The position numbers were made by a program, and so were the translations under genes. Below are positions 2,099 through 43,694 of a DNA stretch of 64,000 bases, piece by piece. How positions within the stretch are numbered: the stretch's first letter is position 1; the number at the start of each line of letters is the position of its first letter. The notes beneath the pieces are model-generated. The model was not told the origin of the DNA and searched no databases. It worked only from the letters and a program-made list of their open reading frames with translations. Location: the NCBI GenBank assembly GCA_017461385.1, contig JAFTXZ010000003.1, positions 146,392 through 210,391 on the forward strand, written 5' to 3'. The DNA comes from Clostridia bacterium. Lineage in GTDB: Bacteria; Bacillota; Clostridia; Oscillospirales; CAG-272.

Positions 2099-5000
2099 TT
2101 AGCGAAAGGAAATAGGTCTTATTCTGCAAAGGCTTGCGCCCCTTACGAGAATAGCCTTATAGCCTTCCTCTTCCTTTTTGATTTCCTCAAGGGCTGAGGC
2201 AAGTCGCTCCCTGCCCACTATTCCTATTCCGTCGCAGTCGCACTCCTTAGTTACAAGGCAGGCAGGCACCTTCTTAGCAAGCTCCTCTATATCTGCTCTT
2301 TGACTTGCTGAGGCAATTACGTAAATACCATACTTGCCACCCAGTGTTGCTATTGTGTATAGCGCCTCAAGAGCACTGGTATTGGAGTCTCTTACCTCCT
2401 TTTGCGCCTGCTCCTTTGCTTGAATAGCAAAGTTCATTTTGTTTTCCTTCATCTTGAGCATATTGAATATGTCCTCGATTGATGCGTCCTGATTCTTCGA
2501 CGGACTTGACGGTGCACTTCCGTATCTTGGCGCTCCGTCAGAGGTTGAAATGCTTCCCTTTAGTCTGGAAAGAGAGGAAAGCCTATTAACCATTACGTAT
2601 AGAGGTGATGGCTTGTATTCCTCGTCAGCCTCACATCTTTTTCTTCTTTCGAGATACTCTGCATAGGCATCTCTTACAAGCTCGCAAATATCTGCGCGCT
2701 CATACTTTCTTACGCTTAAGCCCTTTAGCCCCTCAAGGATTGGATGAAGAACGTTTTCAGTTACCTCCTCACCGTTACAGCAAAGCACCCTTGCGCTCTC
2801 TTTTTTGCTTATGCCCACTAGCATGCAAGCAAGAATTGATGATTGAATGGTCTTATTTTCGCTGATAACCAGCATAGATGAGCTATTTTTACTTAGCTCA
2901 ATTGACACCGGCAGACCAGAATAATCGTTTTCACCAATTGTGAAGCGAGAGTCCTCTGCTCCTCTTACAAGCTGTGCATAGGTTTTTTCTCCATCTGCCT
3001 TATCCTCAAGCAAAACAAAGCGACATTTTTCCTTATCCTGTACGCTCTTGTGCTTTTCCTTGATTTTTTCAATATAGCCCTCAAGCTCGCTTGATGTGGC
3101 GTAGGCGGTTTTTACAAGGGAGCTCTCCCCCTTGCAATAAAGATATGCTTCTCCTCGCTTCAAGGAGCTAAGCTCACTTGATTTTTCATCAAGCGCCATA
3201 CCTGAAATGTTTTTCTTTTCCAGTCTGAAGCATATCATTGTTTTTATTTGATTAAATACAGGGTTCCTTTCCACCTCGCCGTTTGCAATTATTATAAAAT
3301 GCACGCCTGCACATCTGCCCTGTAAAACAGTTTGCGCAAGGCTAAGGATTGTTTCAGAATAAGGCTGATCCTTTTCTCCCTCAAGTAAAGCCTGTGCCTC
3401 ATCAAGCACCACGACTATTCTCGGAAGCACCTTGCCTCCATTCCTTCTCATATCCTCATTATATTCATATACCGTGTTTTTTCCAAGTGAAGCAAAAAGC
3501 GCTTTTCGCCTTTCGATTTCCTCGGAAAGCGCCTCTATGGTGTAGTAAATATCCCACTGACTACAGCCGTCCTTTGCCAGTCTTACGTGGGGCAGTCCCT
3601 TGCTTATATATCTACCAACGGCTCCGTTTTTCTTAAAGTCCAAGAGCCAAAGCTCCAAAAGCTCCCTTGAATACTGCATACAGCCGTTAATTACTATACT
3701 GTGCAAAAGGGAGGACTTTCCCGTGCTGACCTCTCCTAACACCAAGCAGCCTCCCAGCTGAGTGTCCTCTGCCTTACAGCTAAGTTTTAAGCATACCTCT
3801 TTTCCGTTGGACACGCCAATCGGTAGAAGCATTACCTCGCCATCATCTCTTGTAGCTTTATCAAAGCCCAAGTCATTATATGTTACTCTTTGCTCATTTT
3901 TACCATTCACAAGGGACGCCATTTCGGAACAAATTCCCCTTACAAAGGCCACGGAATCCTCTCCTGCCGGAATCATACAAGGGGTGATTTTTGAGTCGCC
4001 CTTGAATATTTCCTTGCCCCTTTGCTCAAGCTTAACGCCTGTATTAAGAAGCTCCTCGTCCTTGTCGCAGACAATTATCAATCTAACGCCTGCCCTTACT
4101 CCATTTTCAGAAAGAAGCTTTCTTAAAATTGATTTTTCCTCAGCGTTTTCCAAAAGCTCCGTCAGCTTATCTCTTATAACAAGCAGGGTATGCTCCTTAT
4201 CGGTTAGTCCTGTGTCTAGTGGAGCTAAAATTTCCATTGGCTCACTTGATATAGTAACAAGCTCACTTGAGAGGGTGTCCCTTATTGTCTCAAGCACAGG
4301 GCATTCCCTTGAAATTATCTTGACGCTCAGGTCTCCTAAAGGAAACTCCTCCAGATATTTCAGCGTCAAGCCACCTATTATTTTATCAAGATAGTCGTTG
4401 TTTTTTCCGTCTCTTTTTAGAATTACTGCCTCGCCACACTGCACGTCAACGCTAAGTATTGCCGGAATTTCCACACTGCGTGAACCGTAAACCTCCTCAA
4501 GAAGCTCACATTTTGCAAGAGCCGTGCCGAAATCTCCAATTGGAATAAATTTTGGCACGCTTCCCTTGTAATCTCTTATTTGACCTATTGAAAGGTCCTT
4601 GCTTTTTTCAATCAGCTCGCCAAGCTCTGCCCTTGCCTTATCAAGAATGCCTGCAAGCTCGCTCTCGCCCTGCTCGCAAAATTCCTTTAGCTTGACCTTT
4701 GCCTGTTGCAAAAGCTCCTCGTGCTTTCGTAGCTCGTCTGCCTTAACTAAATTGAACATTCTTGTCTTTGCGCCCTCGCCCCTTGACAAGTCCTCAACCA
4801 GCCTTCCGCTTTCCTCCACAAGCTCCTTTTCAAGTCTTTCTATCTCATTATCAATTTGAATTGCCCTTTGGAAAACCTCTTGATTTTCTCCACCAGAGCC
4901 GTCCATTTGTCTTTCCAAAATAGCCTTTTCGCTACTATAATTTTCGTTTTCTCTCTCAAGCTCGCTGGCATACCACTCGCTAATGTCCTTAATTGAGCTC

Positions 5001-5770
5001 TCGTGATCCTCCTTTGCCCTTTGGAGCCTTTTCTCGTTATACTTAACAAGCGGGTCGCTTTCCCCTGTGGGCTTGAGCTGAGTGTTTAGCTCCTCCAATC
5101 TGTCCTGTCCCTTGTAGTATTCCTCTGCCAGCTCAAGAAGCTTTTTTCTTGATGGTGGTACAAAGTCCTTGCCACCTAGCTTAAGATAGTCGGAAAGGGC
5201 CTCCTTGTATCTGTCAAGCTCCTTATAAATCCTTGATCTTATTTCTCCGTTTTTCTTTTCCTGTTCCTCAATTCTCTTGATTAAATCACGGTTTTTTCCG
5301 CTATTTATCATTGCATAAACGTCTGAACGAACGCTAAGAGAGCTTTCAAGCTCTGCCTTTAATTGCTCATACTCGCTATCAGCATTGTTCTTCATTCGCT
5401 CATATCGGCAGGATAGGTATTCAAGCTTTTCAGAATGCTCTCTTTCAAGTCCCTCAAATCTTTCGTTGTATGCCTTTTTTACGTTGTCGAGTCTTTCGCC
5501 CTCGTCTGAAAGAAGCTTTTCTCTTTCCGCCTTCAGAATATCTATTTTTTCAATAGCTACCCTTTCGATTTCTCCAAGGCGCTCCTTTTTTGTTGCATCA
5601 AGAATGGAAAGAAGCTCCTCCTCCTCGCGCTTGAATCTTTCAACTTCCTCGTTTAAGGATTTTTGTGCCTCCTCAAGTATTGCGTTAAGGCTGGCTCTTT
5701 TTTCCTCAAAGGTCCTTTTGGCTTCCAAATATTCTTTGTTCTTTTCTTCGATAAGACTCTTTATATCCAA
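2099..5770 (-). CDS. Giant (1223 aa) cytoplasmic protein: about 400 aa N-terminal coiled coil, an FtsK/SpoIIIE/EssC-family P-loop ATPase domain, and a probable second degenerate FtsK-like domain
   Basis: Walker A LGEVSTGKSSL. Walker B IVVVLDEAQALL. The following GVHFIIIANGEVERNPVFNQIKTMICFRL...GEAYLY matches the FtsK block GIHLILATQRP...IKANIPTRIAF...GDMLY. The C-terminal GIYVIASASQRADIEELAKKVPACLVTK resembles a second degenerate copy. No TM helix or FHA motif seen. The start codon is TTG at 5770, preceded by RBS AAGGGGGAG. Confidence 0.7.
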   Translation of the reverse strand: MDIKSLIEEKNKEYLEAKRTFEEKRASLNAILEEAQKSLNEEVERFKREEEELLSILDATKKERLGEIERVAIEKIDILKAEREKLLSDEGERLDNVKKAYNERFEGLEREHSEKLEYLSCRYERMKNNADSEYEQLKAELESSLSVRSDVYAMINSGKNRDLIKRIEEQEKKNGEIRSRIYKELDRYKEALSDYLKLGGKDFVPPSRKKLLELAEEYYKGQDRLEELNTQLKPTGESDPLVKYNEKRLQRAKEDHESSIKDISEWYASELERENENYSSEKAILERQMDGSGGENQEVFQRAIQIDNEIERLEKELVEESGRLVEDLSRGEGAKTRMFNLVKADELRKHEELLQQAKVKLKEFCEQGESELAGILDKARAELGELIEKSKDLSIGQIRDYKGSVPKFIPIGDFGTALAKCELLEEVYGSRSVEIPAILSVDVQCGEAVILKRDGKNNDYLDKIIGGLTLKYLEEFPLGDLSVKIISRECPVLETIRDTLSSELVTISSEPMEILAPLDTGLTDKEHTLLVIRDKLTELLENAEEKSILRKLLSENGVRAGVRLIIVCDKDEELLNTGVKLEQRGKEIFKGDSKITPCMIPAGEDSVAFVRGICSEMASLVNGKNEQRVTYNDLGFDKATRDDGEVMLLPIGVSNGKEVCLKLSCKAEDTQLGGCLVLGEVSTGKSSLLHSIVINGCMQYSRELLELWLLDFKKNGAVGRYISKGLPHVRLAKDGCSQWDIYYTIEALSEEIERRKALFASLGKNTVYEYNEDMRRNGGKVLPRIVVVLDEAQALLEGEKDQPYSETILSLAQTVLQGRCAGVHFIIIANGEVERNPVFNQIKTMICFRLEKKNISGMALDEKSSELSSLKRGEAYLYCKGESSLVKTAYATSSELEGYIEKIKEKHKSVQDKEKCRFVLLEDKADGEKTYAQLVRGAEDSRFTIGENDYSGLPVSIELSKNSSSMLVISENKTIQSSILACMLVGISKKESARVLCCNGEEVTENVLHPILEGLKGLSVRKYERADICELVRDAYAEYLERRKRCEADEEYKPSPLYVMVNRLSSLSRLKGSISTSDGAPRYGSAPSSPSKNQDASIEDIFNMLKMKENKMNFAIQAKEQAQKEVRDSNTSALEALYTIATLGGKYGIYVIASASQRADIEELAKKVPACLVTKECDCDGIGIVGRERLASALEEIKKEEEGYKAILVRGASLCRIRPISFR

Positions 5771-22554: not shown

Positions 22555-23358
22555 ATGAACAAAGCAGGTGGAATAAAGGAAGTGCTTATTTCTCTTTTGA
22601 AATGTGCGCTCTACTTTGGGCTGTGGTATGGAATTTCCACAATCGTTACCTCGGTTGTTACGTCAGCCATTACCGTATCAAATCCCGCCTCCACACCCGG
22701 GGCTATTTTAGAAAAATTTATGCCCTATGCAACAGGCGTCAGCGCCCTGTCGGGAATACTGTTCGTAATTTTATGCTCATTCCTTTACAGGTCAAAGGGC
22801 TACACTCTTTTTGAAAGAACCAGAATAAAGCCAGTTAAGGCTTCGCTTATTTATCACTCAATACTTTTTGGAGCAAGCTTTGTCTTTGTAATAAATTTGA
22901 TGCTTTTTGCACTGGAATACGTGCTTCCTGCCTCTTGGTATACATCCTTTGAGGACAACTCAGTTTTTGGAATGGGCAATCAAATGATAGAAATGCTTTC
23001 CGTTTGCGTGGTTGCTCCTATTTATGAGGAAATTTTATTCCGCGGACTTATTGCAAAGAAGCTTCAGTCCATTATGCCAAGCTGGTTTGCCTTGATTTTA
23101 AGTAGCTTGCTATTCGGTGCGCTACACAACGGTATGATTGGTTTTATTTATGCAACAATTTGTGGTGGAATTATGTGCTTGATTTACTTTAAGACCGGCT
23201 CACTGGTGCCCGGCATTTTATTCCACGTTGCCTTTAATACCACATCTACACTGGTTTCGGGCACTACTATTCCGATATTCGTGTTCGTTTTAACTACGAT
23301 AGTTACTATAGCAGAGCTTATTTATCTATTTATCACATACAGAGGTTTTAAGAAATGA
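22555..23358 (+). CDS. CPBP-family (CAAX protease/Abi) intramembrane metalloprotease
   Basis: Multi-TM protein with EEILFRG (EExxxR) and FGALHN motifs. Confidence 0.75.
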   Translation: MNKAGGIKEVLISLLKCALYFGLWYGISTIVTSVVTSAITVSNPASTPGAILEKFMPYATGVSALSGILFVILCSFLYRSKGYTLFERTRIKPVKASLIYHSILFGASFVFVINLMLFALEYVLPASWYTSFEDNSVFGMGNQMIEMLSVCVVAPIYEEILFRGLIAKKLQSIMPSWFALILSSLLFGALHNGMIGFIYATICGGIMCLIYFKTGSLVPGILFHVAFNTTSTLVSGTTIPIFVFVLTTIVTIAELIYLFITYRGFKK

Positions 23359-24794
23359 AGATTTACAATACACTTACAAAAAAAGTTGATGAATTTATTC
23401 CAAACGAGGCTGGTAAGGTTAAAATGTACACCTGTGGCCCTACCGTTTACCACTTTGCACACATAGGCAATCTTCGCTCCTACATTATGGAGGACGTGCT
23501 TGAAAAGTTTCTTCGCTTTTACGGCTATGACGTTACCCGTGTAATGAACATTACCGACGTTGGCCACCTATCAAGCGATGGCGACACAGGTGAGGACAAA
23601 ATGCTCAAGGGTGCAAAGCGTGAGAAGAAAACCGTTTTGGAAATTGCAGAGTTTTACAAAAACGCCTTTTTTAGTGATTGCAAGAAGCTAAATATCAAGT
23701 ATCCCGATATTGTTGAGCCTGCTACAAATTGTATTGACAGCTTTATCGAAATGGTTCAGGCTCTTATTGAAAAGGACTACGCATATTTTGCAGACGGCAA
23801 CGTTTATTTTGACACCTCTCGCGTGGAAAACTACTATGCTTTGACTGGACACAACCCAGAGGAGCTTATGGTTGGCGTTCGTGAGGACGTAACCGAGGAT
23901 ACCAGTAAGAGAAATAAGAGCGACTTTGTTCTTTGGTTTACTAAATCAAAGTTTGACGATCAGGAGCTTAAATGGAATAGCCCTTGGGGCGTTGGTTATC
24001 CTGGCTGGCATATTGAATGCTCAGCTATTTGTATGAAGCATCTTGGTCAGAGCCTTGATATTCACTGTGGCGGTGTTGATAACATTTTCCCACACCATAC
24101 AAACGAAATTGCTCAAAGCGAGGCATACACAGGCAAAAAATGGTGTAACTACTGGTTCCATGTTCATCATCTAAACGATGAAACAGGAAAAATGAGCAAA
24201 TCAAAGGGAGATTTCCTTACAGTTTCACTTATTGAATCAAAGGGCTACAATCCTCTTGCATATAGATTCTTCTGCTTGCAATCTCACTACAGAAAGCCTC
24301 TTGTGTTCTCTTATCCCGCACTTGATCAGGCGCAGGCCACCTACGAGAAGCTTCTACGCAGAATTGCATCTCTTAAGGACGAGGGCGAGGCTGATATGTC
24401 CTTTGTTAACGAGGCAAGGGCGCAATTTATTGACTCTGTTGGATCCGACCTTAACACTGCCCTTGGTATTACAAGCATTTATAATATTCTTAAGGCTAAG
24501 ACAAGCGACAAGTCAAAGCTTGAAACACTTAAGGAGATTGACAAGGTGCTTTCTCTTGACCTAATTGAGGGTGCTAAGGCCCTTGCTCCACAAAAGGCTG
24601 ACGAGAGCGCTTCACAGGGTGCCGATATTGACCCAGAGCTAAAGGCAAAAATCGAAGCACTTATTGAAGAAAGAGCAAGCGCAAAAAAGGAAAAGAACTT
24701 TGCACGTGCTGACGAAATAAGAGCTCAGCTTACCGAAATGGGAGTTACTATTAAGGACACCCGTGAGGGCACAACATATACAGTAAATCAATAA
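23355..24794 (+). CDS. cysS: Cysteine--tRNA ligase
   Basis: CGPTVYHFAHIGN (HIGH) and KMSKS motifs. The start overlaps the CPBP stop (ATGA). Confidence 0.95.
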   Translation: MKIYNTLTKKVDEFIPNEAGKVKMYTCGPTVYHFAHIGNLRSYIMEDVLEKFLRFYGYDVTRVMNITDVGHLSSDGDTGEDKMLKGAKREKKTVLEIAEFYKNAFFSDCKKLNIKYPDIVEPATNCIDSFIEMVQALIEKDYAYFADGNVYFDTSRVENYYALTGHNPEELMVGVREDVTEDTSKRNKSDFVLWFTKSKFDDQELKWNSPWGVGYPGWHIECSAICMKHLGQSLDIHCGGVDNIFPHHTNEIAQSEAYTGKKWCNYWFHVHHLNDETGKMSKSKGDFLTVSLIESKGYNPLAYRFFCLQSHYRKPLVFSYPALDQAQATYEKLLRRIASLKDEGEADMSFVNEARAQFIDSVGSDLNTALGITSIYNILKAKTSDKSKLETLKEIDKVLSLDLIEGAKALAPQKADESASQGADIDPELKAKIEALIEERASAKKEKNFARADEIRAQLTEMGVTIKDTREGTTYTVNQ

Positions 24795-24854
24795 AAAGCT
24801 AACAAAAAAGAGGTGCTTGCACCTCTTTTTGAAAATTTAGTGAAAGGATATAAA

Positions 24855-25031
24855 ATGCCTAACATCTGTGAATCCTGCGAGTATTACGACTACGACGAGG
24901 AATTTGAAGAATACTACTGCAAAATAAACCTTGACGAGGACGAATATCTTCGCTATATATCAAGTAAAAACCAATCCTGTCCATACTACAAATTTTACGA
25001 CGAATACAAATCTGTACAAAAGCAAAATTAA
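24855..25031 (+). CDS. Small (58 aa) acidic Cys4 protein, possible zinc ribbon
   Basis: MPNICESCEYYDYDEEFEEYYCKINLDEDEYLRYISSKNQSCPYYKFYDEYKSVQKQN. RBS AAGGA lies 7 nt upstream. Its 3' end is the first unit of the 127-bp tandem repeat. Confidence 0.5.
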   Translation: MPNICESCEYYDYDEEFEEYYCKINLDEDEYLRYISSKNQSCPYYKFYDEYKSVQKQN

Positions 25032-25285
25032 CTGCTTTATACTACACCTCATCCGTCTGCCTTGCAGACACCTTCCCCTCCGAACAAAGGGGAAGGCTTT
25101 AACCTGTCCGTACTACAAATTCTACGACGAATACAAATCTGTACAAAAACAAAATTAACTGCTTTATGCTACACCTCATCCGTCTGCCTTGCAGCCACCT
25201 TCCCCTCCGAACAAAGGGGAAGGCTTTAACCTGTCCCTATTACAAATTCTACGACGAATACAAGTCGGTACAGAAGCAAAATTAA
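24978..25285 (+). repeat. 127-bp tandem repeat, 2.4 copies: a 54-nt coding segment (CPYYKFYDEYKSVQKQN plus stop) and a 73-nt spacer carrying the hairpin CCTTCCCC-TCCGAACAAA-GGGGAAGG
   Basis: Units begin at 24978, 25105 and 25232. The period is not a multiple of 3. All nine substitutions in the coding parts are third-position synonymous. Confidence 0.85.
25166..25285 (+). CDS. Possible 39-aa small ORF created inside repeat copy 3 (MLHLIRLPCSHLPLRTKGKALTCPYYKFYDEYKSVQKQN)
   Basis: An A-to-G change in the spacer creates an in-frame ATG at 25166. The C-terminal 17 aa are identical to the upstream small protein despite 6 synonymous changes. No obvious SD. Confidence 0.25.
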   Translation: MLHLIRLPCSHLPLRTKGKALTCPYYKFYDEYKSVQKQN

Positions 25286-25299
25286 ATCACGCAAAGCGT

Positions 25300-25410
25300 G
25301 TATGGAATCGACACAACGCGTCGTATGGAATTACTACCACAGGTAGTGTATGGAATCGACACAACGTGTCGTATGGAATTACTACCACAGGTAGTGTATA
25401 GAATCAACCC
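25300..25410 (+). repeat. 48-bp tandem repeat, 2.3 copies, in the dus leader
   Basis: Unit GTATGGAATCGACACAACGCGTCGTATGGAATTACTACCACAGGTAGT at 25300 and 25348, then a partial third. Each unit contains an internal GTATGGAAT direct repeat. Confidence 0.8.
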
Positions 25411-25440
25411 ATAGGTTGTATGCTTGGAAAGGAGTCAAAA

Positions 25441-26433
25441 ATGGACTTTAAGAATAAAATAGTTTTGGCTCCTATGGCAGGGGTTACGGACTACCCATTC
25501 AGAAAAATAGCAAGGCGCTATGGTGCCGACCTTACTGTGTCAGAGATGATAAGCTCCCGTGCTATGGAGTACAGCGACAAGAAAACTGCAACTCTTATAT
25601 ACACAAAAAATGACGACGTGCCCTATGGCATACAAATCTTTGGTCATGAGCCAAGTGCCATGGCACAAAGCGCATATCTTTTGTCAAGAGGTCTTTACAA
25701 TCCTGAAAATATAGACACTCCTCGTGGCTTTTTAGAGCCACTTCCCTCATATATTGATATAAATATGGGTTGTCCTGTAAAGAAAATCGTTTCCGCAGGA
25801 GACGGAAGTGCCCTTATGAATAACCCTTTGCTGGTTAAGGAGATAGTAACTGCTTGCGTTAAGAGCTCTGCTTTGCCTGTTACTGTAAAAATCCGTGCAG
25901 GCTGGAGCAAAGACAAAATCAACTGCGTAGAGATTGCAAAAATAGTCGAGGGCTGTGGTGCCTCAGCTATTACAATCCACGGACGCACCAAGGAGCAAAT
26001 GTATGAGCCAAGCGCCAACTGGTCATACCTTGAGGCTGTAAAAAAAGCAGTTTCAATCCCTGTTATTGGAAATGGTGATATTTTCACAGGTGATGATGCA
26101 ATCAATATGCTTGACAGAACCGGTGTGGATAGCGTTATGGTGGGCAGAGGCGCTATGGGTAATCCCTTTATTTTTGAGGAAATCAAGTGCAAAATGAACA
26201 AAATTCCGTACACTCCCCCAACAATTCACCAAAGAGTCGAGGTTGCCCTTGAGCAGGTTTCCCTTATGGTTGAGGAAAAGGGCGAAAGAGTTGCAATTTG
26301 CGAGGCTCGAAAGCACCTTTCCTGGTATCTTCGCGGTGTACATGGTGCTGCCCAAGCCCGTGTTCAAATTAACAACGCCACCACCCTTGAGCAGATAAGT
26401 CAAATCTTGAATAATTTTCTACTAAATAGATAA
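25441..26433 (+). CDS. tRNA-dihydrouridine synthase (DusB-like)
   Basis: MDFKNKIVLAPMAGVTDYPFRKIARRYGADL, TIM-barrel Dus motifs; RBS AGGAG before the ATG at 25441. Confidence 0.85.
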   Translation: MDFKNKIVLAPMAGVTDYPFRKIARRYGADLTVSEMISSRAMEYSDKKTATLIYTKNDDVPYGIQIFGHEPSAMAQSAYLLSRGLYNPENIDTPRGFLEPLPSYIDINMGCPVKKIVSAGDGSALMNNPLLVKEIVTACVKSSALPVTVKIRAGWSKDKINCVEIAKIVEGCGASAITIHGRTKEQMYEPSANWSYLEAVKKAVSIPVIGNGDIFTGDDAINMLDRTGVDSVMVGRGAMGNPFIFEEIKCKMNKIPYTPPTIHQRVEVALEQVSLMVEEKGERVAICEARKHLSWYLRGVHGAAQARVQINNATTLEQISQILNNFLLNR

Positions 26434-30589: not shown

Positions 30590-30790
30590 ATGCAAATTTA
30601 GTGAAGTTTTCGCTTATGCGAAAGTGAAGTTGCTTTGCAGTGAAGTTCGTGCTATCGTACGAGTGAAGTTAAGTTTGCCCACCTTGCCGAAGGCAAAACT
30701 TCACGATCTGCAGGATCACTTCACTTACGAAGTAAACTTCACTTGCCCGCAAGGGCAAACTTAGTTGCGTAGTGTCCTTAAGGGCACTAC
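30590..30790. promoter_or_regulatory. Iteron-like array: 4 direct GTGAAGTT motifs, then 3 inverted AACTTCAC motifs, interleaved with at least 6 short perfect palindromes
   Basis: Read directly from the sequence. Palindromes are TTCGCTTATGCGAA, TCGTACGA, TTGCCGAAGGCAA, GATCTGCAGGATC, TTACGAAGTAA, TTGCCCGCAAGGGCAA and GCGTAGTG..CACTACGC. Confidence 0.6.
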
Positions 30791-43268: not shown

Positions 43269-43326
43269 AATTAAGCAACAAAATTTGTGCTTTTATCATT
43301 TAGTACGGAGTAACGAGAAAATAGCA

Positions 43327-43601
43327 GATTTGAAAAATAAAATTTTTCAAGCCACTTCTCAATTCTGCGTATTAAATCGTAGTAAACCACAATTTTTTCT
43401 ACGGGGTAGCAAAACTTTCGTTTTGTGCTACGGACGGTCCCTTGTGAACAACCTGCGAACCCCCCTAAACTCATTCTTCGTTTTGGGGAACTCCAGTTGC
43501 TCCCAGATGACCTTGTCCTTGCATACGCAGCGGATTTGAAAAATAAAATTTTTCAAGCCACTTCTCAATTCTGCGTATTAAATCGTAGTAAACCACAATT
43601 T
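43327..43601 (+). repeat. 69-bp direct repeat (43327-43395 and 43533-43601) flanking a 137-bp segment that contains the GAACCCCCC...GGGGAAC hairpin (43457-43491)
   Basis: Read directly. Each repeat contains the palindrome TTGAAAAAT-AAA-ATTTTTCAA. The second copy forms a 13-bp inverted repeat (CTGCGTATTAAAT/ATTTAATACGCAG) abutting the tRNA 5' end. Confidence 0.8.
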
Positions 43602-43606
43602 AATAC

Positions 43607-43694
43607 GCAGGGGTATCGAAGCGGTCATAACGAGGCGGTCTTGAAAACCGTTTGGCCAAAAGCCACGTGGGTTCGAATCCCACCCCCTGCGCCA
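43607..43694 (+). tRNA. tRNA-Ser (anticodon UGA) with a long variable arm and encoded CCA
   Basis: Acceptor GCAGGGG/CCCCTGC, anticodon loop CTTGAAA, variable stem TGGCC/GGCCA, T-arm GTGGG-TTCGAAT-CCCAC, discriminator G plus CCA. A terminator follows. Confidence 0.85.

Follow-up and report, generated by a model that had tools for sequence, protein, structure and literature searches.

A tandem array of gene-end copies behind a small DUF6472 gene in a Clostridia genome is most likely an untranslated relic

The 64,000-nt stretch of Clostridia bacterium DNA analysed here, called the window throughout, contains a gene for a small four-cysteine protein of the DUF6472 family which is followed by two further copies of its own 3' end, each placed behind a short hairpin-bearing spacer. 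The copies differ from each other at silent positions only, and the original prediction held that each of them is now, or was recently, expressed as a peptide gene of its own. This claim found no support when the array was compared with the same locus in other assemblies. The feature is real and is most likely a non-coding relic array, an ordinary structural relic. The DUF6472 gene is its sole translated unit, and copies 2 and 3 are, as judged from sequence, most likely untranslated leftovers rather than a family of peptide genes. The comparison does support that each copy descends from a sequence which was formerly the expressed gene end.

Anatomy of the array and translation of its copies

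At 24976-25285 Tandem Repeats Finder (TRF) reports a repeat with a period of 127, 2.4 copies, and 93% matches, and direct comparison resolves this region into the order A1-S1-A2-S2-A3. Each A unit consists of 'CC' followed by the last 17 codons and the TAA stop codon of the 58-aa open reading frame (ORF) at 24855-25031, and S is a spacer of 71 nt. Both methods confirm the predicted 127-bp tandem repeat of the last 17 codons in three copies. The spacer had been described as 73 nt long with two differing sites; the two differences are there (A/G at 25041/25168 and C/A at 25068/25195), whereas the length is 71 nt once the shared 'CC' is taken into account. To the left the similarity may reach 2-3 nt further, with AACC in the copies and ATCC in the gene, which would amount to a Ser/Thr-codon difference. 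All three A copies encode CPYYKFYDEYKSVQKQN followed by a stop codon, and as 127 equals 1 modulo 3 they lie in frames 0, +1, and +2. A1 differs from A2 at 3 sites and from A3 at 6, and A2 differs from A3 at 6; in all, 7 sites vary and at least 8 mutational events are required, every one of them third-position and synonymous as had been reported. Because a mere 15% of the possible substitutions in the 17 codons are synonymous (33% if transitions alone are counted), such a silent-only pattern is not expected from neutral change in all copies, and in this respect the original prediction was right that the differences are unlike those of freely drifting DNA.

The middle copy is a chimera. The 5' codons of A2 are of the terminal-copy type (CCG, TTC), its 3' codons are of the A1 type (AAA TCT GTA CAA) and are then followed by S, and the TCT codon is exclusive to A1-type copies. 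S1 and S2 in turn correspond to two S alleles which are present in sister strains. The complete three-copy array recurs base for base in an independent assembly (L086; L-numbers denote comparison loci or contigs from other assemblies). Gene conversion from a paralogue had also been considered: the recombination part of this idea comes close to the mark, but a search of the window for a donor with the back-translated peptide matched just the three copies themselves.

Inspection of the sequence revealed no translation signals on copies 2 and 3. The ATG of the DUF6472 gene is preceded by the Shine-Dalgarno-like AAAGGA. The frames that run into A2 and A3 contain 77 and 61 open codons, respectively, with TTG 24931 and ATG 25166 as the only in-frame starts, neither of which has a Shine-Dalgarno sequence. 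The G at 25168 does create ATG 25166 and with it a 39-aa ORF, as predicted; this ATG is private to the window strain, and every other S has ATA at this place. A programmed frameshift that would yield the same tail from three frames was considered and rejected, since the three frames follow from the period of 127 and are lost in L002, where the unit has 152 nt.

Contigs for comparison were obtained by look-ups of exact proteins and of neighbours, and they cover the window species and four related ones. In species whose Dus protein is about 71% identical the order cysS-DUF6472-dus is kept, 16-22 nt separate the stop codon from dus, and nothing is inserted; this short gap without S or extra tails is the ancestral state. 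L003, from a sister species with a dus 79% identical, has ATCACGCAAAGCGTG..., the sequence which follows A3 in the window, directly 3' of the stop codon. Within the window species five loci (L001 and L004-L007) show the arrangement A-S-A, i.e., one unit fewer than the window, and in all five the downstream copy carries AAA->GAA, which changes Lys to Glu. A sixth locus, L002, also has A-S-A, here with an extra 27-28-nt hairpin within S that brings the unit to 152 nt as compared to 127 nt in the window. The two-copy form was encountered in at least six samples from different projects. The number of units is thus polymorphic, with two units plus the end copy in the window and in L086, one in L001, L002, and L004-L007, and none in L003.

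Another sister species (L090) has its gene end followed by a 97-nt variant spacer, S', and then by a 40-nt gene-end copy alone, which is identical to its own gene end at 39 of 40 positions and comprises 13 codons without a Cys codon. The first 23 nt of S' are as in S, its first hairpin is different, and its second hairpin is similar. The comparison of the array in sister strains and species revealed a nonsynonymous change in five loci and a truncated stump in L090, both of which speak against selection on the copies as peptides; together with the missing translation signals, these are outcomes which the original prediction had itself listed as refuting it. In L010, which belongs to the same species as L003 and is 97.8% identical to it upstream, the stop codon is followed directly by S with an extra 56-nt hairpin block, and 170 nt further on the contig comes to its end. 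For the longer insert in L010 neither the phage and plasmid collections nor IMG/VR gave a match, and the contigs that were reached via its neighbouring proteins break inside the repeat. L088 carries an insert of about 1 kb with a Fic-domain gene (2982-4000) at the same point after the stop codon, with no second gene-end copy. The DUF6472 gene sits in a locally unstable spot. As a side observation, a PD-(D/E)XK-like gene is inserted between cysS and DUF6472 in L003 (654-1871), L010, and L090 (2357-3550). The idea that DUF6472 genes are in general prone to tail duplication was rejected, as a metagenome scan and look-ups found a single tail at about 80 other loci.

The hairpin element and duplications around hairpin inserts elsewhere

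The spacer S opens with the 11-nt arm CTGCTTTATAC, which pairs with the gene end, and continues with the unpaired ACACCTCATCC and two hairpins (25055-25069 and 25071-25096 in S1) to a CTTTAA end. Its folding energy is -30.2 kcal/mol (z = -7), and there is no gene inside it. Neither the whole window nor six S-carrying loci gave a match of S or the array to Rfam 15 at gathering scores, and with E up to 10 the region 24700-25500 yielded chance-level matches alone. The 20-mer CTACACCTCATCCGTCTGCC of S was found exactly in 4 other species in unrelated contexts, and a structured-pattern search of IMG/VR returned at least 104 S-type copies in at least 80 contigs (L097-L176). Across this family the two-hairpin architecture is retained with at least four different stem-1 sequences and with compensated stem-2 variants, and some copies have extra hairpins inserted. 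S is a member of an abundant, dispersed family of hairpin repeats of Clostridia which matches no Rfam family and appears to be undescribed. The IMG/VR copies lie on contigs labelled viral, up to 4 per contig, and are often arrayed with GC-rich modules like ACTACCCCTCAGTC-hairpin-AGCTCCCCT-hairpin.

The window and L010 have the same S at 70 of 70 positions, although their dus genes share just about 79% identity. S is also a point at which assemblies of relatives break off: L080 stops at GACACCTCATCC, and its conspecifics L082 and L083 are without S. From the dispersed family, the identity across species, and the assembly breaks it therefore follows that S behaves as a multi-copy, recently mobile element. 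In the window, L090, and L010 the right end of S, GGAAGGCTTT, falls at the same place to within 1-2 nt. In L080-L083 the DUF6472 gene and the sequence behind its stop codon together make a perfect palindrome, to which the gene contributes its last 17 nt (TCAGTACAAAAGCAGAA TTGA TTCTGCTTTTGTACTGA); the CTGCTTTATAC of the window, with its pairing to the gene end, resembles a degenerate form of this palindrome arm. Read in reverse complement, the 11-mer ACACCTCATCC also turns up in the DUF6472 coding sequence of distant species, which was judged to be a chance match in a few lineages.

With the REP/BIME repeats of enterobacteria, the BOX/RUP repeats of pneumococcus, and the Correia repeats of Neisseria the S family shares that it is short, structured, non-coding, dispersed, modular, strain-variable, and often located behind genes. 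Unlike these, it has an unrelated sequence and no Rfam match, and none of them is known to duplicate the last 13-21 codons of the gene upstream.

Duplications of target sequence around hairpin inserts recur at unrelated loci. The most complete parallel is L011, from a different Eubacteriales genome, where a GH43 glycosidase gene (Pfam E=5.7e-35) ends at 5221 and its last 63 nt are repeated twice downstream (5159-5640) in the layout [gene end-S]x2-gene end. An S-type element stands directly after the GH43 stop codon, a second, different, nested S after the stop codon of copy 2, and the third gene-end copy abuts native downstream DNA. Both relic copies begin at the same base though the S elements differ. 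Copy 2 has one amino-acid and two silent changes, and copy 3 has three amino-acid changes (4 nt) and seven silent ones. A reading of the 83-nt repeat in L011 as a promoter was rejected, as it is the 3' end of the GH43 gene.

A further duplication lies in the window itself, where a 73-nt direct repeat (43323-43395 and 43529-43601, 72/73 identical) encloses a hairpin-rich insert of 133 nt just upstream of a tRNA-Ser gene (43607-43694). In L174 (IMG/VR; 1730-1880) about 36 nt, made up of a small ORF's end and 6 further nt, are duplicated around an 81-nt GC-rich hairpin insert upstream of ssb. Thus the pattern was found at three unrelated targets, the GH43 gene, the region upstream of the tRNA-Ser gene of the window, and L174; a control run of the gene-end scan on reversed sequence gave zero matches. 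The duplications measure 36, 40, 58, 63, and 73 nt. Their flanks copy the target, with 98-99% identity in L090 and at 43323-43601, and the corresponding site of the DUF6472 gene is empty in the relatives L092, L094, and L003. This recurrence of 36-73-nt duplications around tiny hairpin repeats at DUF6472, GH43, and tRNA-upstream loci suggests that gut Clostridia have a mechanism of insertion or repair which has not yet been described for such small elements.

Origin of the array

The explanation we lean towards, with modest confidence, is that the gene end was duplicated in association with an insertion, that unequal crossing-over then enlarged the array, and that copy 1 alone is coding. In the ancestor the ribosome-binding site of dus would have followed almost directly after the DUF6472 stop codon. 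The non-coding element S of about 70 nt would have entered directly after this stop codon, and with its arrival the last 58 nt or so of the gene would have been copied as a direct repeat, in the manner of a very long target-site duplication. The product would be gene end, S, displaced gene end, and dus leader, with the gene left intact. We infer that the insertion event itself made the duplication, through an enzyme which would have acted at this step. Unequal crossing-over between the gene-end copies would subsequently have added a second unit of gene end plus S and given rise to the chimeric A2. The chimera fits such an exchange, as just one new change (AAG->AAA) is then needed. Copy number is polymorphic in close strains and the internal copy is chimeric, as unequal crossing-over would leave them.

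The silent-only differences can be accounted for in three ways at once. Changes in the A1 lineage are all silent because the 17-aa tail is nearly invariant: of the 120 best homologues 33 end in the exact tail CPYYKFYDEYKSVQKQN, almost all the rest are 1-2 residues off, and the tail codons vary freely across species despite the near-invariant peptide. The relic copies contribute few changes, about three silent ones in the window strain. Finally, recombination moves variants between functional and relic positions. The pattern therefore needs no translation of copies 2 and 3. A hand count of differences between functional and relic copies, pooled over the window, L090, and L011, gave about 15 silent and 7 non-silent ones, a ratio that is as expected for a selected copy paired with a neutral one. 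The case shows that a silent-only pattern may arise without translation from a constrained functional partner together with recombinational shuffling. For annotation this means that a relic gene end can look like a small conserved ORF on which purifying selection acts, and may wrongly be taken for a peptide gene.

Precedents for long duplications exist in the insertion sequences IS1549 and IS1634, which generate target duplications of variable length from 8 to 514 bp (PMC2266710). There, as here, target-derived direct repeats of tens of bases flank the insert, with a length that varies from event to event (PMC2266710). IS1549 and IS1634 are 1.5-2 kb long, encode a transposase, and have terminal inverted repeats, whereas members of the S family have 70-130 nt, no gene, and no inverted termini; moreover, most S-family copies are without a long duplication. 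We know of no long, variable insertion duplications for hairpin repeats of 70 nt.

Several observations weigh against this explanation. S is identical across species although A1 and A3 are 11% apart, so that an old first event combined with homogenisation or re-insertion of S, or else a foreign A1, has to be assumed. In front of the relic copies stands AACC, with a Thr-like codon that the L088 and L090 genes share, where the window's own gene has ATCC; this is a hint that another lineage may have been the source of one copy. In the window strain three silent and zero non-silent changes apparently fell on the relic copies, a count borderline for neutrality (p about 0.02-0.1, estimated). Within the 170 nt available after S in L010 there is no gene-end copy. 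Of about 100 IMG/VR copies of S which were examined, three scored high, and all three consist of the modules themselves arrayed in tandem; the S family is therefore not generally marked by a long duplication. S lacks terminal inverted repeats, as neither of its ends (CTGCTTTATAC... and ...GGAAGGCTTT) is the inverse of the other, and we know of no transposase for S. All comparison sequences are short-read metagenome contigs, in which repeat copy numbers may be imperfect.

A generalisation that we regard as rather improbable is that the S family and the related hairpin modules are undescribed non-autonomous mobile elements of gut Clostridia which insert directly behind stop codons and place a copy of 36-73 nt of the target on their far side. 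If it were true, widely staggered cleavage or a target-primed or template-switch mechanism would be possible, the interrupted gene or promoter would always stay intact, and silent 'spare' gene ends would stack up.

The strongest competitor, itself unlikely though deserving to be taken seriously, is a displacement of the C-terminus, in which a DUF6472 fragment of foreign or allelic origin, with S already downstream of it, recombined into the gene and orphaned the resident gene end downstream. The left crossover would have been homologous, the right junction illegitimate and located 58 nt before the resident stop codon. Each copy would then have evolved as a functional gene end in a separate lineage, and this would explain the silent differences directly, the tail being invariant across species and its codons variable. 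The A-ACC in front of the relic copies, as in the L088 and L090 genes, agrees with such an exchange, as does the first stretch of 39 nt in the terminal copy of L002, which equals the gene end of L088. The post-stop arm CTGCTTTATAC resembles the native palindrome arm TTCTGCTTTTGTAC of L080-L083 and fits a 'CAG' codon which is absent from the window gene. The DUF6472 tree is also discordant with the dus tree, window and L003 being 93% identical in the former gene and 79% in the latter. Orphan 3' ends created by homology-facilitated illegitimate recombination have been proposed for Rhs, contact-dependent inhibition (CDI), and type VI secretion system (T6SS) genes (PMC5361080).

Displacement is harder to reconcile with the position of the right end of S within 1-2 nt in window, L090, and L010, as illegitimate junctions should scatter. 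The flanks which are 98-99% identical in L090 and at 43323-43601 must have been made in place, and the two relic copies of L011 share their start base despite different S elements. A clean double crossover leaving gene, S, and leader should be far commoner, yet duplications are seen at three loci. L010 and the window share an identical S, yet the adjacent gene end differs at 6 of 54 sites. The Rhs, CDI, and T6SS ends resemble the array in that old gene ends are stacked downstream and homology between the ends permits further recombination (PMC5361080), but they extend over kilobases with different toxins and immunity genes, unlike the 56 nt found here, which encode the same peptide and show no diversification.

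Direct repeats of a gene 3' end around an insert are the classical signature of site-specific integrative elements. The array might accordingly be the remnant of such an element, in which the gene end served as att site, S is what was left after internal deletion, and the copies arose by tandem accretion, similar to cis-mobilisable elements beside integrative conjugative elements. This we consider quite improbable. The likeness to att duplication by elements that target 3' ends extends to the gene-end direct repeat flanking an insert and to the intact target, and the site after the stop codon is an insertion hotspot, with the Fic insert of about 1 kb in L088 and the longer insert in L010. There is, however, no recombinase or integrase gene in or near the array, the 'element' measures just 71 nt and belongs to a dispersed repeat family, and the L088 insert comes without a second gene-end copy. 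The unrelated GH43 gene uses its own end, and a copy borne on attP would need to differ for each target.

Diversity-generating retroelements likewise repeat the 3' end of a gene nearby in a non-coding form. They were rejected as a model, as the substitutions are mixed (A/G, T/C, G/A, C/T, A/C) rather than adenine-specific and the peptide is not diversified; no reverse transcriptase gene adjoins the array.

The reading of the original prediction, that every copy is translated as a separate peptide and kept in place by purifying selection, is very improbable. It could draw on the at least eight silent changes among the three copies, on the open frames, and on ATG 25166. Apart from the missing Shine-Dalgarno sequences, the absence of this ATG from sister strains, the Lys->Glu change in sister relic copies, and the 13-codon stump without a Cys codon, it conflicts with the variation in unit number and spacer length (127 versus 152 nt), by which frames are not kept, with the absence of the array from more distant species and of extra tails at about 80 DUF6472 loci, and with the amino-acid changes in the analogous GH43 array. 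A mis-joined or expanded repeat from short-read metagenome assembly can hardly be credited, even though all related sequences are metagenome contigs, several of which break in or near the array, and L001 has an N run in the neighbouring minisatellite, because the three copies are told apart by 3-6 substitutions each, the three-copy array occurs in an independent assembly, and the two-copy form comes from at least six samples of different projects.

The DUF6472 gene and its neighbours

The features of the locus are listed in the table. The protein matches PF20076 with 81.2 bits against a cut-off of 27 over model positions 3-57 of 57, which places it in DUF6472, a family with hundreds of members in uncultured Clostridia; 742 homologues were found. 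As to its function, no solved relative, no NCBIfam model, and no paper were found. One homologue, P0002, has 100 aa and, between the two Tyr-Asp-Glu motifs, a stretch of about 35 residues that is duplicated internally in tandem and in frame (YDEDWDTYSCQMNLDEDEMVRFLTQKHQSCPYYRY twice).

Table. Features of the DUF6472 locus in the window (positions of the 64,000-nt stretch)
Feature	Position	Strand	Basis or remark
cysS, cysteinyl-tRNA synthetase, upstream neighbour	23355-24794	+	Pfam tRNA-synt_1e E=1.7e-95; synteny kept in relatives
DUF6472 gene, 58 aa, four Cys	24855-25031	+	Pfam PF20076 E=6e-23
A1, functional gene 3' end, repeat copy 1	24976-25031	+	TRF, direct comparison, codon table of strains
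S1, hairpin repeat element, first copy	25032-25102	+	Folding, family members in other genomes
A2, most likely untranslated pseudo-copy, frame +1, chimera	25103-25158	+	Codon table; no start codon backed by Shine-Dalgarno
S2, hairpin element, second copy	25159-25229	+	2 sites differ from S1
A3, terminal pseudo-copy, frame +2	25230-25285	+	Adjoins L003-type post-stop sequence
dus leader	25286-25440	+	Small hairpin 25288-25300, minisatellite 25298-25405, dus ribosome-binding site
dusB-like tRNA dihydrouridine synthase, downstream neighbour	25441-26433	+	Pfam Dus E=5.9e-86

At the DNA level the DUF6472 gene of the window is 92-93% identical to those of L003 and L090 although cysS and dus reach just 76-81%. 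This high identity reflects either a small number of silent sites, the protein being rich in two-fold codons, or an exchange of the gene between species.

The array has cysS, dus, and a leucine-rich repeat (LRR) protein as neighbours. The minisatellite of the dus leader has a 48-bp period, and its modules consist of TATGGAAT and a short hairpin; there are about 4 units in L002, 2 in the window, 1 each in L007 and L090, and 0 in L003, and in more distant species the dus leader is wholly missing. A match of the dus-leader region to the RNA RsmY (E=1.7) was dismissed as chance-level. Analogous modules of 'ATTTCAT plus hairpin' occur in L088. Elsewhere in the window, a pointer to a gut-associated organism comes from a match to Gut-1 RNA on the - strand at 30693-30767, which with 53.3 bits is just above the Rfam gathering score of 50.

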